Source: an uncultured Candidatus Peribacteria bacterium (GTDB lineage Bacteria; Patescibacteriota; Gracilibacteria; Peribacterales; Peribacteraceae). From it: a DNA stretch of 57,899 nt. Numbering within the stretch: position 1 is the first letter of the stretch; each line of letters opens with the position of its first letter. Position numbers and translations under genes: made by a program. The notes under the pieces are model-generated. The model had not been told where the DNA came from. It did no database searches and saw nothing but the letters and a program-made list of their open reading frames with translations. The stretch covers positions 1 through 57,899 of the forward strand of contig CAZYAK010000003.1 in the NCBI GenBank assembly GCA_964645935.1, given 5' to 3'. Shown one piece after another: positions 1-44,847 of this stretch.

Positions 1-30
1 GCCTTGGTATCCGCATGGCCGGCTCCACCA

Positions 31-392
31 AGGGTTTCCCGTTTCTTTGTCGCCACAAAGAAACGGGGGAAAGAAAACGCCGACCGCGACAAGCCACCGG
101 CCTCCAGCGGATAGGGGTCCCTCTAGCGGGTGCAATGCTCAAGGAACAGGATCCCTGCGGCCGTAACCGCCTACCCGCCGTGTCCGGTCGAGGGGTAAGG
201 CGAAGACCCTGCTCGGAAGGGGTCAGTGGCTCCAGAAGAATGCCGTATCGATTGCACCCGCGCGCTACCCCTACAACCCAGCCGCAGGTCTTCGACCTGC
301 GGGTGACGATCAAAGCGGCCGCGACCAAACACACACATATCCCCAGTCGCACTGGTCCCGCGGTGCGGACTGGCGATCATGGCGTCCGCCCG
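31..392. repeat. ORF-less structured repeat element, copy A (hairpin 38-67; blocks shared with 27905-28145; inverted TTGATCG-hairpin module at 260-313)
   Basis: Block-wise nucleotide similarity to 27905-28145 and 36594-36703. Perfect 13-bp stem CCCGTTTCTTTGT/ACAAAGAAACGGG. No ORF with coding-like composition. Confidence 0.6.
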
Positions 393-1163
393 TCACGCCG
401 CCATCGCCTCCTGCGCGAAGACTCGCAGACCGTCCTTCTGGCGGGCCAGCTGGCGGATGCGCTCGCGGGTGACGCCGAAGTCCAGGGTCTGTTCGCGCAT
501 GACGTCATAGTCGTCGGAGACGAGCTCCAGGCTTCCGGGGACCTCCGCGTCCTGGGCCACCATCGCGGCCGTCTCGGTGAACTTGGTGGAGGTGATGATC
601 GTGGGATCCTCGGTGTCCTGGGACGCCTCGACCACCGTGGCGACGCCGTTCTTGATCTGCACGGCGGCCACGTCCTGCACGGCCTGCTGGGTGTGCTCGT
701 ATTCGTGCGCGCCCACGCCTCCGGCGGCCTTCTTGTCCACGACGGTGGTGGTGCCCACGGTCTTGGCGGCATCGAACTTCTGCGTGCCCTCCTGGTCCAG
801 GTACGCGGTGCCGAGGATGTTGCCCTCGTGCTCCTCGTGCTTGAGATCCCACTCTTTGGTGGAGTCGTGGAGATCCTTGGCGCCCTGCTCCAGGTGTTCC
901 GCGGCCTCGGCGATCACGTCGGCATCGGCATCCGCGGCGCCCAGGCGCTCTAGGTCCTTGGCGGTCTCCTCCCGGTCCTGCGGGGACGGCGGCGTGGCCC
1001 GTTCCTCCAGGAGCTCCTGGGTCTGGCCGCGCGAGGCGTCGGCGTAGGACTGGAGGCGGGTGGCGCGCTCGCGGACGGCGTTCGCCACCTCCGCGGCGCT
1101 CTTGCCGTCGGCTTCCTTGGCGACGTCCACGTAATGGTCTTGGGCGAGATGCAGGCTGTTCAT
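393..1163 (-). CDS. hypothetical acidic protein with HEYEH (HExxH-like) motif, C-terminus AMAA
   Basis: ORF 393..1217, trimmed to the ATG at MNSLHL (start uncertain; a GTG at 1217 is possible). High GC3 and a K/E/D/T-rich real-protein composition, unlike the R/G/H-rich antisense ORF. Confidence 0.6.
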   Translation of the reverse strand: MNSLHLAQDHYVDVAKEADGKSAAEVANAVRERATRLQSYADASRGQTQELLEERATPPSPQDREETAKDLERLGAADADADVIAEAAEHLEQGAKDLHDSTKEWDLKHEEHEGNILGTAYLDQEGTQKFDAAKTVGTTTVVDKKAAGGVGAHEYEHTQQAVQDVAAVQIKNGVATVVEASQDTEDPTIITSTKFTETAAMVAQDAEVPGSLELVSDDYDVMREQTLDFGVTRERIRQLARQKDGLRVFAQEAMAA

Positions 1164-1330
1164 GCCACTATTGTGGGGCTTCCTCCGGCCAAGTCGCTCC
1201 TCAGTGCGGGGGAACACGGGGAGAATCTCTTTTATGGCTTACAGAAGCCATAGTACGTATGCATGCGATCTTCGTTTCCGGACGCGGAGGGCTCGCAATC
1301 GCCGGGATTCACCGATCCCGTGAACGGCCA

Positions 1331-1361
1331 AAAAAAGCCCCGGGCTCATGGACCCGGGGCT
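1331..1361 (-). terminator. rho-independent terminator
   Basis: The minus strand reads GCCCCGGG-UCCAUGAG-CCCGGGGC followed by UUUUUUU, 20 nt after the stop at 1381. Confidence 0.8.
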
Positions 1362-1380
1362 CCTTCCCTTTCGGACGGTG

Positions 1381-1602
1381 TCAGGCCGCCATGGCCCGGC
1401 TGGCCTCGACGACGGCGGTCTCCTCTTCCTCTTCTTGTACCTTGGCGATGATGTCGCGGAGCTCCTCCTCGTAGGTGGCGGTGAGTACGCGGATCTGTTC
1501 GGTGACGTCCTCTTGCTCCTTCGCCTGCTCCCTCTGCTCAGGCATCTGGGGGGCCTCGACGGTGTCGATGGCGGGGGTGGTCTCGAGAGTGGCGTGAGCC
1601 AT
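1381..1602 (-). CDS. small acidic hypothetical protein (73 aa), C-terminus AMAA
   Basis: ORF 1381..1686 trimmed to MAHATLETT. A C-rich tract CCTTTCCCCATCCGATC lies directly upstream of the ATG, and a terminator follows. Confidence 0.55.
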   Translation of the reverse strand: MAHATLETTPAIDTVEAPQMPEQREQAKEQEDVTEQIRVLTATYEEELRDIIAKVQEEEEETAVVEASRAMAA

Positions 1603-2053
1603 GATCGGATGGGGAAAGGTGATGAGTACGCGCTTAGTATGCCCCGTCCGCAGCGTGTGCAAATGCAAGAAGCCGACAATCTGCACGTGCGAACCATCCG
1701 CGCCTGTACAAAGCCGAAGTCGGCGGGTTCACGAACCGCGGATGGAAAACGGGCTGTACGGATCGGGCTGCCGCTTTGCCACGTTTCGCCGCGGCGCGCC
1801 GCACCTCGTACTCCAGCTTGAGGATGTCGCCAGTCTTGGGCGCGCGATCCACGGGCTTCCGCGAGCCGAGCATCGCCACCCCCTCCTCATACGCGGACTC
1901 GAACTGCTTCTGCCTCTCGTCCCTGCAATTCGCGAGACGCTCGCACGCCTACTGCACGCATCGGCCCCTCCGCCAGGCATTCTTGCATGCCGCCCACAAC
2001 ACGAACCAGGCGGAGACCGGTGTTTCCGTCTGGCCGATGATCCGTTCCAACCG

Positions 2054-2530
2054 TCAGGCGGCCATCGCCGTCTGGGCCTCCTCGGGAGCGTCGGCGGGCG
2101 CCGCAGGGGCGGGGTCCGACGTGTTCGGCTCCAGCGTCTCGACGACCGGCTCGGCAGCCTCGGGCACAGTATCCGTCACGACGACGGGCTCCTCGCGGGG
2201 AGCGGCCTCGGGCTCCGGGAACTTGTCGTCCTCGTGGACGCGGATCTCGCCGGCCTCGTTGACCTCCACGCCAGCCAGGCCTCGGTGCGGGGTAAGGTCG
2301 GTGACGGGCGTCTCCGCCGCGGATACGGCCACGCCGCCGCTTTTGGCCTGCATCGCGGTGCTGCGGTTCAGCGCGCGCTTGATCTCCGTGCCCTGCTTCG
2401 CGCGCAGCAGGGTGACGTCCAGTTCCGCCTTGAGCGTGACGGCGAGGCTCTCGGCCTCGTGGTCCTTGAGCGTGCGCTCGTCGCGCTCGCGCAGGGCCGG
2501 GAGAAGTTCGCTTCGATCCAGCTTCCGCAT
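2054..2530 (-). CDS. hypothetical acidic protein (158 aa), C-terminus AMAA
   Basis: ORF with high GC3. The ATG is preceded by CCTTACCCCCCTTCCCCC. Confidence 0.6.
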   Translation of the reverse strand: MRKLDRSELLPALRERDERTLKDHEAESLAVTLKAELDVTLLRAKQGTEIKRALNRSTAMQAKSGGVAVSAAETPVTDLTPHRGLAGVEVNEAGEIRVHEDDKFPEPEAAPREEPVVVTDTVPEAAEPVVETLEPNTSDPAPAAPADAPEEAQTAMAA

Positions 2531-2697
2531 GGGGGAAGGGGGGTAAGGAATGAAAGCGCCCCAAGTATCGTCCGTATCCCCTCAGGCGGTACCGAAGCGC
2601 CGTCCGAAGTCCGGGCACGTGCCCGATGCGACCGCCGTACGGGAAGCACACGATGCACCCAATCCTCATCTTCCGTGCTCGCGGTCAAGGTGTGGGA

Positions 2698-3192
2698 TCA
2701 GCGCAGCCGCTCGTAGTCCTCAAACGTGAACGCATGCGCGTGCCGGTCGTCGGCGTCGTGGCGCTCGCCAAGGACGCGCTTCCACTCCCCTCCCGGGAGC
2801 GGGGGGAACACCGTGTCGCCCTGGAAGTGTGCATGCACGCGGGTGAGGCGCACGCGGTCGGCCAATGGCAGCGCGGCGCGGTAGATCTCGCCGCCACCGA
2901 AGACGATGGCCTCCTCCGCCCCTCCCGCTTTCGCCATGGCAATGGCGCTCTCCAGCGACGAGGCGTGCTCGGCGCCGGGCAGCACTCGCTCCGCATCGCG
3001 CGTGATGACGATGTTGCGCCGCCCCGGCAACACGCGCCCGATGGACTGGTGGGTTTTCCGGCCCATCAGGAGCGGCTTGCCCATGGTGATGGCCTTCATA
3101 CGGGCGAAATCGTCCGGGAGGGACCACAGCAACGTATTTCCGCCCCCTATGACGTTTCCTTCATCCGCGGCGACGACGAGGGTGAGAATCAC
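2698..3192 (-). CDS. folA: dihydrofolate reductase
   Basis: VILTLVVAADEGNVIGGGNTLLWSLPDDFARMKAITMGKPLLMGRKTHQSIGRVLPGRRNIVITRD aligns with the DHFR N-terminus. GTG start chosen by homology; the ORF extends to 3333. Confidence 0.9.
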   Translation of the reverse strand: MILTLVVAADEGNVIGGGNTLLWSLPDDFARMKAITMGKPLLMGRKTHQSIGRVLPGRRNIVITRDAERVLPGAEHASSLESAIAMAKAGGAEEAIVFGGGEIYRAALPLADRVRLTRVHAHFQGDTVFPPLPGGEWKRVLGERHDADDRHAHAFTFEDYERLR

Positions 3193-3329
3193 GCCGCAAT
3201 CATACGCAAAAAACCCGCCGAAGGCAGGCGAGCCTGTCCTGAGCCTGTCGAGGGGCCTGCCTGGAGGCGCCCCTTGCCGGAAGGAGGGCCCACGGGAGGA
3301 AACCGGAGGGTTCCTTCCGTGCCGGAAGG

Positions 3330-4904
3330 TCATGGTTGGACGACGTAGCGGACCGTCTTCACCGACGGGAATTGCTTGAGGTTGGCGGAGATCGCGCGCT
3401 GCGCGGAGGTGGAGCTCTCGGTGTCACCCTGGAAGATCTCGGCCAGCGGGCGGGCCAGCCGCACCGTGGCCGTGCCGCCCTGGATGACGACGCCGCGGTA
3501 ATCGTCTCCCGAGAAGCCCCACACGCCGTTGCAGGGCTGGGCCTTCTCGTCGGCGGAGATGGAGGCGTGGAGCATCGCGCGGAGCGTCATGTCCGCCACG
3601 GAGGAGGACTGGGGCACGGTGCGCGTGAGCTTCACGGTGGGCGCCGGGACGTCATGCACGCCCGAGCCGTAGGGGCAGAGCAGGATGCTCACCTCCATGG
3701 TGGGAGCCTCCTGCGCGGCGGGCGCGGGCGCGATGTCCACGGTGTCCAGGAACGCGCGGAAGAGCTGGTCCTGCCCGTCGGAGGAGAGGTATCCGTCCTG
3801 TTGTTGATTGCAGTCCACCGACCGTACGATCACGAGCGTGCGCGTCGCGTCCATGGGGACGAAGGTCGTCTCCCAGCCCTCGCACTCGAGGCCCTCGAAG
3901 TACGAGACGCCTTGGCGCCCGTCCACGGTGACATTCTGGGCGAAGTCCTCGTCGAAGGAGTTGAAGCCGAGCCGCGCGTACACGAGCGGCCGGTCCAGGA
4001 CGCCCACGGAGATCGCCAGCTTGCTCACGGAGGGGCGGCACGGGGCGTCTGGGCCCGCCATACCGTTGCAGCCCTCTGCGGTCTCGTGGCGGCGCACGTG
4101 CGCGACATCCAGGGAGTGCATGCGCTGCAGGTCGCCGGGTACGTAGATGTCACGCACCGTCAGCACGCCTTCCTTGGCGCTGAAGAGCGATCCGGGGTAG
4201 CTGAAGGAGACGTCACGCAGCACGGACGACACCTCGTCGCTGCGCACGTCGTCACCGTCCTCGATGCCGGAGAACCATTCCAGCGACGTGCGGCCGGTAT
4301 CCAAGCGATAGCGCAGCTCCGCCATCTCGCCGCGCGTGAACGGGGCGTCGTAGGCCTCCACGGTGGGCGGCACGGCGTGGCGCGCCAGGAGGGCGGAGGC
4401 GTAGGGCGCGTACCAGCGGTGGTCGTACGCGTCCGCGGGGAGGATGGGCAGCTTGTAGGCGGTGGCGGCGATCTTGGCGGCCTCGGCGTAGTTGATCCAC
4501 GCGTGCGGCGCGAAGCCGCCGTCGGGGTATCCCGAGACGATGCCACGCTCCTTGGCCACGCACACGTACGGCGCGAACCACTCGGTCCTGGGGACGTCGG
4601 GGAAGATGATCTGGGATTTAGCCACGCAGGCCGAGCGCTCCTCGGGGGTGGAAGCGTCCACCACCAGGAGCTTGGTCAGCTCCGCGCGGGTGATGAGGCC
4701 GTCCGGACGGAACGTGCCGTCGGGGTAGCCCTCCACGCTCCCCTTCCCGCGCAGGAACTCGATGGCGGGCGCGGCGGACACGCATCCGCGGACGTCGGAG
4801 AAACCCGTGGCCGCGGCGTTGCAGCCGGTGGTGGCCAGCGCGACGGGAACGGCCAAGAGGGACGTCGACGCGACGGCGGCGGACAGTAGGAGGGAGAGGC
4901 GCAT
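3330..4904 (-). CDS. secreted SLH-domain protein with C-terminal GerMN-like domain
   Basis: Signal peptide MRLSLLLSAAVASTSLLAVPVALA. Two SLH-type repeats (GYPDGTFRPDGLITRAEL, SGYPDGGFAPHAWINYAEAAK). The C-terminal ...GGTATVRLARPL...ANLKQFPSVKTVRYVV looks GerMN-like. Confidence 0.7.
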   Translation of the reverse strand: MRLSLLLSAAVASTSLLAVPVALATTGCNAAATGFSDVRGCVSAAPAIEFLRGKGSVEGYPDGTFRPDGLITRAELTKLLVVDASTPEERSACVAKSQIIFPDVPRTEWFAPYVCVAKERGIVSGYPDGGFAPHAWINYAEAAKIAATAYKLPILPADAYDHRWYAPYASALLARHAVPPTVEAYDAPFTRGEMAELRYRLDTGRTSLEWFSGIEDGDDVRSDEVSSVLRDVSFSYPGSLFSAKEGVLTVRDIYVPGDLQRMHSLDVAHVRRHETAEGCNGMAGPDAPCRPSVSKLAISVGVLDRPLVYARLGFNSFDEDFAQNVTVDGRQGVSYFEGLECEGWETTFVPMDATRTLVIVRSVDCNQQQDGYLSSDGQDQLFRAFLDTVDIAPAPAAQEAPTMEVSILLCPYGSGVHDVPAPTVKLTRTVPQSSSVADMTLRAMLHASISADEKAQPCNGVWGFSGDDYRGVVIQGGTATVRLARPLAEIFQGDTESSTSAQRAISANLKQFPSVKTVRYVVQP

Positions 4905-4992
4905 GGCTGGAGCATAATCCAGAAGCACCAACCTCCAAGCATCAAATTCCAAACCGTTTGGTACTTGGAGGTTGGAAGCTGGTGCTTCGCCG

Positions 4993-5853
4993 TCACACGG
5001 CGATGGGCGCCTTGATGGAGGGCAGCGGGTCGTACCCGACCACCTCGATATCCTCGAAGCGGAACGCGAGGAGGTCCTTCACATCCGGATTGAGCTTGAG
5101 GGTGGGCAGCGGACGCGGCTCGCGCGTCAGCTGCTCCTTGGCCTGGTCCAGGTGGTTGAGGTACAGGTGCGCGTCGCCCATGGTGTGCACGAAGTCGCCG
5201 ACCGCGAGGCCGCACACCTGCGCGATCATGTGCGTGAGCAGCGCGTAGGACGCGATGTTGAAGGGCACGCCCAGGAAGATGTCCGCGGAGCGCTGGTACA
5301 GCTGGCAGCTCAGCTCGGGCTTTCCTGCCCGAGCCCCATCAGACACGTAGAACTGGAAGAGCGTGTGGCACGGAGGCAGCGCCACTTCGTCGGCTTCCGC
5401 GGGGTTCCAGCCCGTCACGATGTGGCGACGGCTGTCGGGGTTCTTCTTGATCCCGTCTACGAGCTTGAGGATCTGGTCGACGCCGTCTTTCTTGAAGGTG
5501 CTGTCCGCGTTGCGCGTCGCGCCGAAGTTGCGCCACTGGTGGCCGTACACGGGCCCTAAGTCCCCCGCCTCGCGGCCGAAGCGCGCGGTCTGCTCCGCAG
5601 TGGCCCACTCGTCCCAGATGGTGACGCCCTGGGCCTGCAGCGTCTTTACATTCGTGTCGCCGGAGAGGAACCAGAGCAGTTCCTTGAAGATGGACCGCGT
5701 CGCGAGCTTTTTGGTGGTGAGCAGCGGGAAGCCTTGGCGCAGGTCGTAGCGCGCCTGGTACCCAAAGACGGACCGCGTCCCCGTGCCCGTGCGGTCGGAC
5801 TTCTCGGTGCCGTGCTCTAGGACATGGCGGAGGAGATCGAGGTACTGCTTCAT
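4993..5853 (-). CDS. thyA: thymidylate synthase (ThyA type)
   Basis: [38 protein letters not shown] is the canonical ThyA N-terminus. Full length, 286 aa. Confidence 0.97.
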
Positions 5854-5973
5854 GGCCCGCGCACACTACCACAAGAATGCGGCGCCGGAACGGCGGCGGG
5901 AATCGCGGCAACAAGACGGCTCCCCCGGTCAGAGACCGGGGGAGGAGCCGCTCAGGGGAGGACGGGGGGGCGG

Positions 5974-6117
5974 CTAGTAGCCGCCCGGAACTGGGTGCTT
6001 GCCCCAGTGGGCGGGTGTTTTCCACCCGCAAACCATGGTGACGTATCCATACCCACCGACGACCACGACGGTCACGATGAACGCGATACGGACGACGTTC
6101 CAGACTTTTCTTAACAT
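5974..6117 (-). CDS. possible small membrane protein (47 aa)
   Basis: Hand-translated as MLRKVWNVVRIAFIVTVVVVGGYGYVTMVCGWKTPAHWGKHPVPGGY. One clear TM helix. GGGAGA lies 7 nt upstream of the ATG. Below the ORF-track size cutoff. Confidence 0.4.
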   Translation of the reverse strand: MLRKVWNVVRIAFIVTVVVVGGYGYVTMVCGWKTPAHWGKHPVPGGY

Positions 6118-7518: not shown

Positions 7519-7668
7519 GGACTTGTTCTCTGCGGTACCCGGGCCACCTTGCGGCGGCGTCAGGTACCGGTCTGTGATGCGAATGACCATCACCCCTGGC
7601 AGGGTGGGAACGGGCAGATGCCCGCTCCGGCTTCCCCGGTTCCACACGGAACCTGATGGGAAGAGAGC

Positions 7669-7696
7669 ATTTTGCTGATTTATTGCAAAATGTCAA
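7669..7696 (-). promoter_or_regulatory. candidate sigma-70 promoter (TTGACA-16 nt-CAAAAT) for the 7518 gene
   Basis: The minus strand has TTGACA at 7696..7691 and CAAAAT at 7674..7669, within an AT-rich intergenic region. Confidence 0.4.
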
Positions 7697-7862
7697 CTAC
7701 AGAGCACCATTTGGGATGGTAGGTAAATTTTGGCGTCAAAAAGCCAAAATACTCTTGGTTTTACGAAACGCTCAGGGAGATCCACGATGTATGTTCGTGG
7801 ATTTCACGTCTTCCGTGAATCCGCGATCCGGCGTCTCTGACTGCCCGTTTCCAATGGGCCTC

Positions 7863-9047
7863 TCAGCGCCCCGCGCACTCCTCGGGCCACGGGGGGAGAT
7901 CCTTCATCGCGCCGTATGCGGGGGTGTAGTCATTGCGGGCGTTCCAGACCGTGTACCCGCAGAGACCCGCATCCTGCACGGCGGCCATCTGGTCCCGCAG
8001 GTCCCGGGCCGAGACGTAGTACCCCTGGATCCACGGCCGAAGCTTCCGCCAGTGCTCCTCGCCGAGCAGCTGCTTGTAGCCGTCGAGCGTGCGCCACACC
8101 AGATAGTACGAGCGGCTTCCCGGGTTCTTGCCCGGCACGTAGTACGCACCCGCGGCGAAGGTCGACGGGTAGGCCATGGGGGAGATGACATCGACGTACG
8201 GGGCGAAGCGCACGAAATCCTGCCCGATCGCCTCCAGGTTGATGGGGTAGTTCCACCCCAGGATGGCGTACGTGCTGATGCCAAAGACCGTGCCGGGGCT
8301 CACCTCGTCGATGGTCTCGCGCACCATGCGGATGAAGGGCTCGATGCGGTCCGCCTTCTCCTTGCCGCTCAGTCCGATGGACGCCTGCGCGTATTCCGTG
8401 GGGTAGCGGATGTAATCGAGGTTCACCTCGTCGATCCCCGTCAGGAGGAGGTCTCTCAACACTTGCTGGTTGTACTCCAGCGTCACGGGCATGGAGCCGT
8501 CCACCCAGACGGTTCCGATGCTGCGGCCCGTGGAGGGATGGCGAATGTGCGCGTCGGGGCGGCGCGCGGAGAAGAGCGGATCCTTGAGCGAGATGAACCG
8601 GCCGATCACGTAGATGCCGCGCGCATGGGCCTTGGAGACGACGTCCGCGAGATCGAGGACCGGACGGACGAGGCCCAGCTCGTGAGCGATGGCCGCGGTC
8701 GTGGGGAAGTACACGTTGGACCCCTTCACGTCGACCACGAACGCGTTGCCTCCCAACGCTTCCAGGCGATCAAAGGTGGCATCGAGGAACTCGGGGTTGG
8801 CCGCGGTCGTCGCTCCCAGGTAGACGCCGCGGGCCCGGAGCGCGCTCGCGGACGGACGTCCGCCGAGCATGCCGAAGAAGTACCCGGAACCCGTGTTGGT
8901 GCGACCGCGGTTCGCCTCGCGGCGTTCCAGCCGCCGCTGCATCCGATCCTGGGCGCTTGCCATGGCCACCAGCGTGGGCCGAGGAGCGGTCGCGAGCGGT
9001 TCACGAACAAGCTCCAAAAGTACGGCGACGGCGAGAAGACTGCTCAC
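7863..9047 (-). CDS. putative glycoside-hydrolase-like TIM-barrel protein (GHL/DUF4015-type)
   Basis: GGNAFVVDVKG..., ARGIYVIGRFISLKDP, GIDEVNLDYIRYP match motifs recalled from hypothetical glycosyl-hydrolase-like families. GTG start. Confidence 0.5.
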   Translation of the reverse strand: MSSLLAVAVLLELVREPLATAPRPTLVAMASAQDRMQRRLERREANRGRTNTGSGYFFGMLGGRPSASALRARGVYLGATTAANPEFLDATFDRLEALGGNAFVVDVKGSNVYFPTTAAIAHELGLVRPVLDLADVVSKAHARGIYVIGRFISLKDPLFSARRPDAHIRHPSTGRSIGTVWVDGSMPVTLEYNQQVLRDLLLTGIDEVNLDYIRYPTEYAQASIGLSGKEKADRIEPFIRMVRETIDEVSPGTVFGISTYAILGWNYPINLEAIGQDFVRFAPYVDVISPMAYPSTFAAGAYYVPGKNPGSRSYYLVWRTLDGYKQLLGEEHWRKLRPWIQGYYVSARDLRDQMAAVQDAGLCGYTVWNARNDYTPAYGAMKDLPPWPEECAGR

Positions 9048-38675: not shown

Positions 38676-38957
38676 TCACCCGGGCCGCACCCGCACCACC
38701 TTCTTCCTCCCCGTCTGCCCCACCACAATCTCCACGCAGGCGCGCGGCACGCTGAGCGTTTCCGAAAGGAACGTGACGAGTTCCTCGTTGGCCTTTCCAT
38801 CCTCCGGCGCGGCTGCGAGGTCGATCTTCCAGGTGCCGTCGGCCATGACGGAACGGAAGCGCGTCTTGGCCGCCCCCGGGTGCGCGCGCACGGAGAGCGT
38901 GACGCTCTCCCCCGCCGCGAGCGCGGAGCGCGCGGCGGCGACATGCCCGTCGGTCAT
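38676..38957 (-). CDS. DUF167/YggU-family protein
   Basis: ...KIDLAAAPEDGKANEELVTFLSETLSVPRACVEIVVGQTGRKKVVRV is the typical YggU pattern. Start at MTDGHV, overlapping the upstream stop. Confidence 0.75.
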   Translation of the reverse strand: MTDGHVAAARSALAAGESVTLSVRAHPGAAKTRFRSVMADGTWKIDLAAAPEDGKANEELVTFLSETLSVPRACVEIVVGQTGRKKVVRVRPG

Positions 38958-39364
38958 GCGGCAAACAGGACCATGGCGGCGAGCGCAAAAACCATCCCCA
39001 GCGCCTGCCGGGCCGTGGGCGTCTCGTGCAGGAACAGTGCCGCGAGGATGATGGTCACCACGGGATACAGCGCTGTGAGCGTCACCACCACCGACGCCGG
39101 CCCTCGGGCCAGCGCCGCAGCGTAGCAGGCCGTACCGAGCGTGACGCAGAGCCCCGAGAAGACGGCGAAGGCGATGCCCGCGGGCGGCGTGCCGATCTGA
39201 GCGGGCGCAAAGAGCAGCACGATCCCCAGCCCAATAGCCGAGCCAATCGTGCCGTAGATGAGGATGCCCTGCGTATTGAGGTGCCCCGCGGCCAGCTTGG
39301 TAAAGATGCCCCAAAAGCCCCACAACACGAGAGAGACGATTGAGAACACGATCCAAGGACGCAT
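38954..39364 (-). CDS. small EamA-like (DMT superfamily) membrane protein
   Basis: 136 aa with 4 TM segments and the EamA-type ending ...LFLHETPTARQALGMVFALAAMVLF. Confidence 0.65.
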   Translation of the reverse strand: MRPWIVFSIVSLVLWGFWGIFTKLAAGHLNTQGILIYGTIGSAIGLGIVLLFAPAQIGTPPAGIAFAVFSGLCVTLGTACYAAALARGPASVVVTLTALYPVVTIILAALFLHETPTARQALGMVFALAAMVLFAA

Positions 39365-41651: not shown

Positions 41652-42569
41652 TCAGATGAAGTCCTTCCAGAGCCCGCTCACGTCCACCCGCTCCACCTCC
41701 TCCACGGCGGTGGTCTCCCTCCCTTTCCGGGGCTCTAAGCGATCGTAGAAGCTGGGGACATCCGTGCGGCGGTAGAGGACACCGGTGGCGATGCGCTCGG
41801 AGACGTCCAAGGTGAGCGCGCGGGCCTTCTGGATATCGCAGGCCGGATCGTGGCCCTCCGCGTTGGCGTCGTAGCACTTGGCCAGGAGGTACTCGTGCGT
41901 GGCGAAGCGGTTGTAGGTGGGGCAAGCCTGCAGGACGTCCACGAACGCGAAACCGTGCTGCTGGTGGAGGATGGCCTGCTTGAAGAGCTGCGTGAGCTGC
42001 ACAATGTCGCCCGAGAACCCGCGCGCCACGAACGTGGGCTCCAGCGAGTACACGAAATCCATGGAGTTGATGGTGTGCTCGGGGATGCCGTTGGGAGAGG
42101 AGTTCATGGGCTGGCCCTGCCAGGTCAGCGAGCTAGCCTGGCCCGTGGTGAGCCCGTAGTTGGCGTTGTTGTGGAGAACGAACGTGATGGGGTAGTTGCT
42201 GCGGATGCTATGGACGAGATGACCCACACCCTCCGAGAAGCTGGCGCCGTCGCCGCCAAAGGCGATGACGGGCAAGCGCGGGTTGGCGAGCTTCGCACCG
42301 GCGGCGAAGGGCAGCACGCGGCCGTGCAGTCCGTGGAAGCGGTACCCCTTGAGTTTGTCCGAACCGTTGCCATGGCAGCCCACGTCGTAGCAGAGCAAGG
42401 CCTGCCACGGGGCGATGTTTAGCTCCACAAGTGCGCGCTTGATGGCCGTCCAGATGCCGTAGTCGCCGCAGCCGTCACACCACGTACACCTGTTCGCGCA
42501 GGCGTACTGCCCCATGGTGGGAGCCTGTGTGGAGTCTGCCGAGGGATCAATGTGGAGGGGAATGCTCAT
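41652..42569 (-). CDS. korB: 2-oxoacid:ferredoxin oxidoreductase, beta (TPP-binding) subunit
   Basis: CDGCGDYGI, GCHGNGS and AFGGDGASFSEGVGHL TPP motif. Start at MSIPLH, overlapping the alpha stop (ATGA). Confidence 0.9.
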   Translation of the reverse strand: MSIPLHIDPSADSTQAPTMGQYACANRCTWCDGCGDYGIWTAIKRALVELNIAPWQALLCYDVGCHGNGSDKLKGYRFHGLHGRVLPFAAGAKLANPRLPVIAFGGDGASFSEGVGHLVHSIRSNYPITFVLHNNANYGLTTGQASSLTWQGQPMNSSPNGIPEHTINSMDFVYSLEPTFVARGFSGDIVQLTQLFKQAILHQQHGFAFVDVLQACPTYNRFATHEYLLAKCYDANAEGHDPACDIQKARALTLDVSERIATGVLYRRTDVPSFYDRLEPRKGRETTAVEEVERVDVSGLWKDFI

Positions 42570-44395
42570 GCGGCGCGGGGACGGGGCTGACGGGCAGGGA
42601 CCTTCTGCGTGGAGGCAGCGCGTTCGGTGACGAGCGCGAGCAATTCGTCGTAGAAGAACGGGCGGCCGTCGTACTTGAGGATACGGTCCTCGATGCGGAT
42701 GCCGGTCTCCTGCGCCAAGAGTATGCCCAGCTGCCCCTGGTGGTTCTGCTCCACGAGCGTCACGTTCCCGGCTTTGCCTGCAAGCTGGCGGAACCGCTCG
42801 GTCTTGAGGGGCCACATGTAGCTCCAGTGGAGGTAGCCGATCTTCTTGCCGCGAAGTTCCGGACTGGTGAGCACGTCCATGACGACGCTCTTCGTGCTCC
42901 CCCACCCTACGAGCAGGAGGTCCAGCGCCGGAAGCTTTTCCGCCGCGCGTACCCAGTCGCCCCCGCTGCCAATCCAGAGGTCGGGCTCTGGGAGCATGTT
43001 CTTCAGGGCGTCGTGCTTGCGCATGCGCTTCTCCATCTGCAGGCGCGCGTTCTCTGCGGATTCGTCCACGGTACCGTCGCCATCGTGTTCGTCGCCTTGG
43101 GCGTTCCATGTGGCGGCATCCGTGCCCGGGAGCCAGCGTGGGGAGACACCATCCTCTATGTGGGGATCAAAGCGATCGGTGCCCTTGAGCGTCTTGAGAT
43201 GCGCGGGATCCGTGATATGCCCGCGCCGGATCTCGGCCACGGAGAGATCGTAGGGGGCCTGAGTGTAGAGCGCCTCGGCAATCTGCTTGTCCGTGAGGAC
43301 GATAGTCGAGAGCTGATACTGCTCGGCGATGTTGAAGGCTTCGGGCATGAGGTGGAACGCGTCATGCGCGTCGGACACCGACACCACACAACGCGGGAAT
43401 TCGCCATGCGCGGTGAAGACCGCCAAGAGCAGGTCTCCCTGCGCGGTCCACGTGGGCAGGCCCGTGGCGGGGCCGGGGCGCTGCGCAAGCACGAACACGG
43501 TGGGATTCTCGATGATGCCGTTGAGGGAAAGCGTTTCGCTCATCAGGTCGAACCCGCCGCCCGAAGTGCCCGTGAGCGCACGGGTGCCGGCGTGCATGGC
43601 GCCCGAGACCATCTGTGCGGCGGTGATCTCGTCCTCCGCCTGCTTGATGACCATGCCAGTCTTGTTCTGGATATCCGCGATGTAGCTCAACAAGGGGCTC
43701 GATGGCGTCATGGGGTACCCCGCATAGAAGCGCACGCCCGCGTGCACGGAACCCAGACCCATCGCCTGGCTGCCCGTAATGAGGAGATGGTGCGTCCACT
43801 CCGCGGACGGTTTTGGGAGCGTCACCGTCACCTTTCCATGCTGAGCGTCGGTGTGGCCGTACCCCTCCTCAATGCACTGCATGTTGGCGTCTAAGAGGTT
43901 CTTCTTCTTGGCGAAGCGCTCGCCCACGAGGGTCTTGAGGGCGTCCATGGGCAGCCCCAGCGCCGCCCACACGAACGCGGCGATGAGCACATTGCCGAGG
44001 ATGGGCTTGGCGCCCATCTTGGCCAGGATGGCGTCTACAGGGAGCTCGATGACGCGGATCCCCTGCTCACGGAGATACGCGAGGTCGGCCGCCGGGAACG
44101 TCCAGTGCGGCGTGTAGTGCACCACGATGCCGCCGGGTTTCACCTCACGGAGGTTCAGTTCCAAGCCGTGGTGGTTGAAGGTGACGAGAATGTCTACCGT
44201 CCGCTCCGTGGATTCTAGGCGCTCGGCCGCACAGTCCAGCTGGTAACTGGCATGCCCGCCCTTGATGAGCGAGGGATACTCGCGGTAGCCGAACACGCAG
44301 TAGCCGGAGCGCTTGAGGCCTTTGGCGAGAATTTCGCCCACAGAGTTAATGCCCTGGCCCGACGCGCCGACAATCTTGAGGGAGACGCGCCTCAT
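42566..44395 (-). CDS. korA: 2-oxoacid:ferredoxin oxidoreductase, alpha (fused gamma-alpha) subunit
   Basis: N-terminal gamma-like IVGASGQGINSVGEILAK, then the alpha domain (GYPMTPSSPL, TSGGGFDLM). Confidence 0.9.
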   Translation of the reverse strand: MRRVSLKIVGASGQGINSVGEILAKGLKRSGYCVFGYREYPSLIKGGHASYQLDCAAERLESTERTVDILVTFNHHGLELNLREVKPGGIVVHYTPHWTFPAADLAYLREQGIRVIELPVDAILAKMGAKPILGNVLIAAFVWAALGLPMDALKTLVGERFAKKKNLLDANMQCIEEGYGHTDAQHGKVTVTLPKPSAEWTHHLLITGSQAMGLGSVHAGVRFYAGYPMTPSSPLLSYIADIQNKTGMVIKQAEDEITAAQMVSGAMHAGTRALTGTSGGGFDLMSETLSLNGIIENPTVFVLAQRPGPATGLPTWTAQGDLLLAVFTAHGEFPRCVVSVSDAHDAFHLMPEAFNIAEQYQLSTIVLTDKQIAEALYTQAPYDLSVAEIRRGHITDPAHLKTLKGTDRFDPHIEDGVSPRWLPGTDAATWNAQGDEHDGDGTVDESAENARLQMEKRMRKHDALKNMLPEPDLWIGSGGDWVRAAEKLPALDLLLVGWGSTKSVVMDVLTSPELRGKKIGYLHWSYMWPLKTERFRQLAGKAGNVTLVEQNHQGQLGILLAQETGIRIEDRILKYDGRPFFYDELLALVTERAASTQKVPARQPRPRAA

Positions 44396-44847
44396 GCGGC
44401 ACGAGAAAGCAGGTCTTTGGCCCACGCCTGTACCGCACCTTCCTGACCGTAGGGATCGTTGAGGATTTTGAGGGTGGGAGCCGCTATCGCTCCGCCGTGC
44501 GACACGACGAAGGCCTCCATGTGTAGGGCCGCGTTGGCTTTGTAGAAATATCGCTCATCCCCCAGCGCCACGAGAGCCACCTTCTTGCCCGCAAGCACGA
44601 CGTCCTTGGCACGGTCCAGGAGCAACGTCCACATGTGCGGGTTGAGCTGACCCTCCACGTTGCCCGTGTTCCAGGTGGAGGACAGCAGCACCAAGACGTC
44701 CCCCCGCAGGAGGTCCTCGGCCTTGGCCAACTCTGCACGCTGCATCTCCGTCTGCATCCCGCTTGCACGCAGCGCTTCTGCGAGCACGCCCGCGACGTGC
44801 TCGGTGTGTCCGCTCGTGGACGCGTAGACAAGGTGGAAGGAGGGCAC
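44392..44847 (-). CDS. flavodoxin
   Basis: LVYASTSGHTEHVA FMN phosphate-binding loop. 151 aa. The stop overlaps the korA start (ATGA). Confidence 0.85.
   Translation of the reverse strand: MPSFHLVYASTSGHTEHVAGVLAEALRASGMQTEMQRAELAKAEDLLRGDVLVLLSSTWNTGNVEGQLNPHMWTLLLDRAKDVVLAGKKVALVALGDERYFYKANAALHMEAFVVSHGGAIAAPTLKILNDPYGQEGAVQAWAKDLLSRAA

Follow-up and report, generated by a model that had tools for sequence, protein, structure and literature searches.

Why should three neighbouring genes, whose products share no other sequence similarity, all end in the same four residues? The question is raised by a contig of 57,899 nucleotides (CAZYAK010000003.1 of assembly GCA_964645935.1; the window in what follows is this whole stretch) from an uncultured Candidatus Peribacteria bacterium, in which three consecutive genes of the reverse strand, here called g1, g2 and g3, encode proteins ending in ...VFAQEAMAA, ...VEASRAMAA and ...EEAQTAMAA, respectively. 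A first inspection of the DNA letters (the sequence-only reading) had drawn attention to these three co-directional neighbours with an AMAA end, and the open reading frames (ORFs), the tail codons and the TGA stops all match the sequence (Table 1). By comparing gene sequences across related loci, we show that the tails exist, that they are specific to the g1, g2 and g3 set, that diverged genomes conserve them as peptide sequence, anchored at the C-terminus, and that they converge on the consensus of the ssrA tag encoded by transfer-messenger RNA (tmRNA). Our preferred interpretation, which we consider rather probable, is that they are genetically encoded ssrA-like C-terminal degrons read by ClpXP or by another AAA+ protease.

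In a scan of all six frames of the window, AMAA followed by a stop codon was found three times, exactly at the ends of g1, g2 and g3 and all within 2.2 kb, and AMAA is the sole C-terminal tetrapeptide that occurs three times among the 619 stop-to-stop ORFs. The G+C content at third codon positions (GC3) of the three genes (0.83-0.91) is of the coding type, in a sequence of 65.7% G+C, and their likely starts are the ATG codons at 1163 for g1 (MNSLHLAQ, kept in its orthologues), 1602 for g2 and 2530 for g3. The products are indeed acidic, with isoelectric points of 4.6-4.8, and the impression that they could not be aligned by eye outside the tail was correct, as pairwise BLASTP of the three found no similarity beyond the four AMAA residues. 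It had also been considered that corrected gene models might move the stops. These were confirmed by Logan contigs from two wastewater runs, which have no differences to the window sequence of the g1-g3 region (X1 covers 349-2303 and 2312-2700; X2 covers 348-875, 995-1904 and 1901-2700), and in a 2024 run of another study positions 1291-1557 were unchanged; the matching runs are all wastewater or activated-sludge metagenomes, and the source sample may be among them. Since separate wastewater contigs agree without a single difference, the stops are not an assembly error.

Comparative evidence of selection on the tail comes from the relatives of g1. Searched exhaustively with phmmer, 1.84 billion representatives gave 21 homologues (E 1e-49 to 1e-4), and 14 of the 23 full-length members of the family end in Ala-Ala, against the ca. 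2% (1.9%) expected from the alanine content of the family, 13.9% (binomial p 7e-19). Ala stands at -4 in 14/23 and Leu or Met at -3 in 13/23, for a tail consensus of Y-A-[L/M]-A-A, with endings that include TKYALAA, TQFALAA, QTYAVAA, NRVALAA, AEPALAA, PQVTMAA and ANMRMAA. Among individual members, P0013 ends in FALAA and P0014 in YAVAA, and the gene at 3590-4258 of locus L003 corresponds to P0024. The number of residues that separate the last conserved helix of g1 (...F-A-x-E) from the C-terminus ranges from ca. 3 to 20, and the end is still kept. Because this spacer varies, the tail must be tied to the free C-terminus and not to the fold. For g2 and g3 the comparison rests on one orthologue each. 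That of g2, in L005 (GCA_040384425.1), has 75 residues (34% identity over 70 aa, E 2e-6, BLASTP) and ends in ...EAMPAMAA, and that of g3, in L006 (GCA_964423795.1), has 121 residues (40% over the 72 N-terminal aa, E 8e-15, BLASTP) and ends in ...ETPTAMAA. The C-terminal half of the latter is unalignable and the protein is 37 residues shorter, and both genes lie between folA and the g1 orthologue. The residue at -3 agrees within a genome, being Met in all three tails of the window and in both tails of L006; such uniformity fits one common reader.

Ala-Ala ends are otherwise rare. They close 18/27 members of the g1, g2 and g3 families but only 4 of ca. 95 unrelated genes (Fisher p 1.6e-11), namely 3/48 in the window and 1 of ca. 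47 in the related loci, which, within the sequence available, disposes of the concern that such ends might simply be common through composition. The three in the window are the only other Ala-Ala termini among its ca. 50 genes: a pyruvate:ferredoxin oxidoreductase subunit (42566-44425, reverse strand, ...PRPRAA), a 151-aa gene upstream of it and overlapping (44392-44847, reverse strand, ...LLSRAA) and a membrane protein (38954-39364, ...VLFAA).

The wobble bases of the tail codons differ among g1, g2 and g3 in the way described by the sequence-only reading, which had taken the conservation to lie in the peptide and not in copied DNA. The orthologues bear this out. In those of g2 and g3, AMAA is written with other Ala codons and closed by TAA, and in the relatives of g1 the stops (read in the DNA of eight members with Ala-Ala) are TGA, TAA or TAG. 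Over the tails compared, Ala is encoded by GCG, GCC or GCT. Orthologues in DNA of 52-63% G+C keep the tail as well. With both Ala and stop codons differing from one orthologue to the next, an RNA or DNA element can be excluded. Two specific candidates were discarded in this connection, a DNA repeat or RNA element across the stop (the wobble bases differ in the three copies and the orthologues have TAA or TAG) and read-through of TGA, suggested by the TGA-C context of all three stops, which was rejected because the orthologues use TAA or TAG. For such an element, only a family of 17 nt at 88% identity (D3) was found.

Table 1. Features of the g1-g3 region, in window coordinates.
Feature	Position	Strand	Description	Basis
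g1	393..1163	(-)	256-aa acidic protein, end AQEAMAA	ORF, GC3 0.91
g1 AMAA codons	396..407	(-)	GCG ATG GCG GCG, then TGA 393-395	sequence read
E197 codon	573..575	(-)	invariant Glu, helix 192-207; candidate third metal ligand	ligand role inferred
HEYEH codons	693..707	(-)	residues 153-157, invariant HExxH	sequence read; 22-sequence alignment; model
Terminator-like hairpin	1335..1361	(-)	G+C-rich hairpin and T-run, directly after g2	consensus scan
g2	1381..1602	(-)	73-aa acidic protein, end SRAMAA	ORF, GC3 0.83
g2 AMAA codons	1384..1395	(-)	GCC ATG GCG GCC, then TGA 1381-1383	sequence read
g3	2054..2530	(-)	158-aa acidic protein, end QTAMAA	ORF, GC3 0.90
g3 AMAA codons	2057..2068	(-)	GCG ATG GCC GCC, then TGA 2054-2056	sequence read
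Dihydrofolate reductase gene (folA)	2698..3333	(-)	context	likeness of ORF translation to related-locus dihydrofolate reductases

What could read such an end? The E. coli ssrA tag, AANDENYALAA, carries a terminal Ala-Ala-COO- that is the main determinant for ClpX, and similar Ala-Ala degrons direct native proteins to ClpXP as well (PMC7652416); native ssrA-like ClpX degrons are known as 'C-motif 1' (Flynn et al., 2001, 2003, as cited in PMC7652416). In a screen of random pentapeptides in E. coli, 91% of the top 100 C-terminal degrons had a terminal Ala-Ala and all depended on ClpXP, and Ala was favoured at -4 and Leu at -3 (PMC10862746). The proteins g1, g2 and g3 all have a free Ala-Ala, with Met at -3 and Ala at -4, and one relative ends in YALAA itself. 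With FALAA, YAVAA and VALAA among the other endings, the family places the tail in the ssrA class, as the sequence-only reading had suggested. The likeness to the tag and to C-motif 1 lies in the free Ala-Ala, locked to the C-terminus after an aliphatic residue and Ala, and in a family consensus that matches ...YALAA. Unlike the tag, these ends are encoded in the genes of three native proteins that are neighbours, they have Met in place of Leu at -3 in this lineage, and the residues before them are acidic or neutral. The comparison is with the tag of E. coli, which may not be the tag, or reflect the ClpX specificity, of this host from the Candidate Phyla Radiation (CPR).

In the mechanism that we propose, g1, g2 and g3 would be cytoplasmic and each would expose a free ...A-[M/L]-A-A-COOH. 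The axial pore of ClpX meets this determinant on tmRNA-tagged proteins, and other AAA+ proteases that accept ssrA-type ends would recognise it as well. Given this common determinant, the same protease could turn over all three proteins, which would then have a common short or regulated lifetime. With the same tail, g2 and g3 might track g1 in abundance, or might act as its competitors for the protease. An ATP-dependent Clp protease and a C-terminal processing protease have been reported from Peribacteria genomes (PMC4736985). In going from a selected, ssrA-like tail to a ClpXP substrate, we infer both a Clp-type reader and the degradation. The proposal also predicts the tmRNA tag of these organisms; searches of the window and of seven related loci yielded neither tRNA nor tmRNA genes.

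Several observations weigh against a degron. Nine of the 23 g1 relatives lack the terminal Ala-Ala (endings such as KKVA, LSHS, AQAI, AMAV and MMA). The residues before the three tails are acidic or neutral (QE, SR, QT), and position -3 is Met where the canonical residue is Leu. In the E. coli screen Ala-Ala was necessary but not sufficient, and neutral or positive tags performed best (PMC10862746). Besides, in the model of g1 AMAA closes the helix 245-255, which is predicted with confidence, at a predicted local distance difference test score (pLDDT) of ca. 96, and AMAA may here be less accessible than a free tail. The tail of g3 ends a segment of pLDDT below 50 and, being predicted disordered, should be accessible.

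A close precedent is that of the Streptomyces sigmaAntA, an orphan extracytoplasmic function (ECF) sigma factor, for which a degron was first suspected from the C-terminal Ala-Ala. This ending is present in 67/71 orthologues, ClpXP degrades the protein and an AA-to-DD change stabilises it (PMC7142297). In both cases a native protein keeps Ala-Ala in most of its orthologues (14/23 for g1). They differ in that stabilisation by AA-to-DD was shown there both in vitro and in vivo and the tails described here are known from their sequences, and in that the tail here is common to three different proteins.

Encoded ssrA-like tails are a known route to a short or regulated protein life. On native proteins they have been documented, to our knowledge, in only a handful of model bacteria, and we know of no work on regulated proteolysis in the CPR. 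Tails of this kind are now found in a CPR bacterium, on three unrelated neighbours at once, and with comparative evidence of selection.

The largest of the three proteins, g1, belongs to a previously undescribed HExxH family of Peribacteria, which by its model has a confident predicted fold without neighbours in the PDB. Apart from the exhaustive search, its relatives were difficult to find. Word-indexed searches with g1 and g3 returned the queries themselves only, one with the g1 alignment returned just two other family members, a profile search of genome contigs with a g1 sub-alignment gave two Peribacteria loci, and metagenomes scanned twice, with the g1 sub-alignment and with the g3 alignment, gave nothing. 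The 22-sequence alignment of the family has five invariant columns, H153, E154, H157, Q160 and E197. Of the two HExxH-like motifs that had been pointed out in g1, HEYEH (153-157) is therefore the one that stands, since it is invariant, and HEEHE (111-115) is not conserved as such in the relatives. The AlphaFold model made from these 22 sequences has a pLDDT of 94.6 and a predicted template modelling score (pTM) of 0.89, and consists, in order, of four N-terminal helices, the helix 144-159 that carries HEYEH, a small beta sheet, the helix 192-207 with E197, and more helices.

An HExxH on a helix, with an invariant Glu on a downstream helix 40 residues on, is the active-site layout of the gluzincins, and on the strength of the model g1 would be a putative metallopeptidase of this type. 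The best Pfam match, Zn_peptidase_2 (PF04298), falls on residues 146-197 (E 0.012, 15.6 bits against a cutoff of 27). When g1 is set beside the known gluzincins, both the YugP-like Zn_peptidase_2 family and the minimal zincins Wss1/WLM, the helical HExxH and the Glu 40 residues later are alike, and the weak PF04298 match covers exactly this span from HExxH to Glu. The four-helix N-terminal region and the C-terminal helices of g1 have no counterpart in them, and its activity is predicted only. No match was found in NCBIfam, PADLOC or PHROGs, a profile search of the PDB returned designed helical bundles only, and with Foldseek against PDB and BFVD the best E was above ca. 1, the nearest structures being 80-residue pieces of TACE, ADAM10 and Wss1. 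Overall, neither sequence (Pfam, NCBIfam, PDB) nor fold (PDB) gave significant similarity to a recognised peptidase family.

The two smaller proteins appear to be built in a different way. In its AlphaFold model g3 has a single long N-terminal helix (6-63, pLDDT above 90), and residues 74-158 are mostly below 50; these C-terminal ca. 85 residues, predicted to be disordered, are rich in Pro, Glu and Ala and end in AMAA. The protein g2 looks similar, like a miniature of the same build. Both genes occur only beside g1, and only in some lineages (L005 has g2 only and L006 has g3 only); they are accessory to g1. Two identities that had seemed conceivable were rejected. A ribbon-helix-helix antitoxin does not agree with the single long helix modelled for g3, which has no Pfam match, and a modifier of the Pup/UBact type does not agree with g2, which ends in AMAA and not in Gly-Gly-Gln/Glu and has no linked ligase; no PafA or Dop-like gene was found in any neighbourhood of the g1 family. 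L001 has a 93-aa ORF (7609-7890) where g2 or g3 would be expected, on the upstream side of its g1 homologue. It could not be aligned to g2 and has a Gly-rich end, ...GGSAGGGGA, in place of Ala-Ala.

The neighbourhood of g1 is that of folate and thymidylate metabolism. In each of the seven related loci with a contig that reaches upstream, a gene of the g1 family follows folA directly, often with a gap of only ca. 110 nt, and thyA is found further upstream of folA wherever the contig reaches. The Pfam domain DHFR_1 was called upstream of the g1 homologues in L001, L005, L006, L012, L013 and L014, and folA in L009 and in the window was assigned by likeness to those dihydrofolate reductases and not by a Pfam scan. 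On the other side, where the contig extends, g1 is convergent with folE-folK-folB (L001, L005, L006, L008 and L013, as well as L003, without folA); the window extends 392 bases past g1, so that its folE side lies outside. The Peribacteria synteny, as read from positions 393-5853 of the window and from L001, L003, L005, L006, L008, L009, L012, L013 and L014, can be written as (TrmB - DUF4015 -) thyA - folA - [0-2 small acidic genes] - g1, convergent with folE - folK - folB. Along it the g1 proteins are only 23-46% identical, and a position that stays fixed despite this divergence hints at a link between g1 and folate or thymidylate metabolism. Inherited gene order may be the alternative, as all the compared genomes belong to one class. 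The 2016 Peribacteria paper did not identify folate biosynthesis genes in its genomes (PMC4736985). Fixed as it is between folA and folE, the g1 family is a candidate for an unknown step or control point of folate and thymidylate metabolism in these reduced genomes.

In the window a gene for a 540-aa protein with an SLH domain (3330-4952, reverse strand) is found between thyA and folA, where the relatives have nothing, and its stop and the start of folA overlap (3330-3333). Between thyA and folA of L013 there is a YafQ-like toxin pair, encoded on the opposite strand. With both of these in the thyA-folA gap, the neighbourhood evidently accepts insertions.

Could the three tails be explained without a protease? 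Composition is the simplest possibility, since an Ala-rich proteome of high G+C could often end in Ala-Ala, and the window is not only G+C-rich but has the three other genes with RAA, RAA and FAA ends. However, AMAA would be expected at ca. 1e-5 to 1e-4 per terminus, and yet it is found at three adjacent ones and nowhere else in six frames, so the sequence-only reading was justified in calling a chance occurrence negligible. The scarcity of Ala-Ala among unrelated genes and its retention by orthologues of lower G+C point the same way, and on the sequence available we give this explanation practically no credit. A functionless historical trace, left when new ORFs received a copy of the g1 3' end or when gene conversion homogenised these ends, would account for a stretch of 43 nt, 19 of them past the stop, in which g1 and g3 are 72% identical at their 3' ends (family D2). 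It would be hard to reconcile with a tail that persists in orthologues that elsewhere are only 30-40% identical or can no longer be recognised, with codons and stops changed, and that is enriched throughout the g1 family, which makes it very improbable. Of the post-stop stretches themselves (360-392 for g1 and 2021-2053 for g3), 12/19 nt are alike, and that of g1 includes TGATCGCC. Only slightly less doubtful is a signal for export or sorting by a secretion ATPase, with g1 as a secreted zincin effector of this CPR cell, which is presumably host-dependent, and with g2 and g3 exported together with it. The tails are C-terminal and position-locked, with small residues, a hydrophobic -3 and acidic runs before them (g2 ...EEEEETAVVEASRAMAA); the C-terminal signals of some type IV secretion substrates resemble such tails, and many HExxH toxins are secreted. 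Nevertheless, we know of no export system that uses Ala-Ala-COOH, there are no secretion genes in the conserved neighbourhood, with its folate and thymidylate genes, and g1-g3 lack a signal peptide. In addition, of such systems only type II secretion and type IV pili are reported in the Peribacteria paper (PMC4736985).

More serious, although still unlikely, is that the tail is a docking peptide without a proteolytic role, recognised by a common receptor that could be the zincin cleft of g1. The tail of g1 would then fill its own cleft in cis, as an auto-inhibitor, and those of g2 and g3, being tethered, would act as its competitors or be trimmed. A helix followed by a long disordered linker and a conserved terminal motif, as in g3 and probably g2, is the build of a tethered ligand, and the exclusive occurrence of both beside g1, the invariant HExxH...E site, the ordered rather than floppy g1 tail of the model and the common Met at -3 of all tails within a genome would all be understandable. 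On the other hand, most g1 homologues keep the tail in the absence of g2 and g3; among those without them, L003, L008, L012 and L014 retain Ala-Ala, and L009 ends in AMAV and L013 in YMMA. A fixed intramolecular geometry is also ill-suited to tails of such variable length after the last conserved helix, and the convergence on YALAA points to ssrA readers. A regulatory module could be imagined in which the tail is the handle of a degron-mimic 'tail competition' switch around g1, a new zincin in the thymidylate/folate cluster, instead of a mark for plain constitutive turnover. The level or activity of g1 would depend on whether its own ssrA-like tail or the tethered ones of g2 and g3 gained a single reader, or the g1 cleft itself, and g1 would be a folate-linked metallopeptidase with, for example, an amide of the pterin/para-aminobenzoate-glutamate type or a protein of the pathway as its substrate. 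We regard this as an improbable elaboration, and we retain the encoded degron as our interpretation of the tails.

The spacers between the three genes deserve a brief description. A terminator-like hairpin directly follows g2 (Table 1), and from its presence we predict that g1 probably has its own transcript start. A scan of positions 1-6000 against Rfam gave only a chance-level match. In the 451-nt spacer between g3 and g2 there is a possible basic ORF of 81 aa (1634-1879, reverse strand, GTG start), ending in ...HAADGAY, for which no family match and no Ala-Ala tail were found. The third-position G+C periodicity in the frame of g3 runs ca. 300 nt beyond the g3 stop (1634-2053), and the ORF in this spacer may be a decayed gene.

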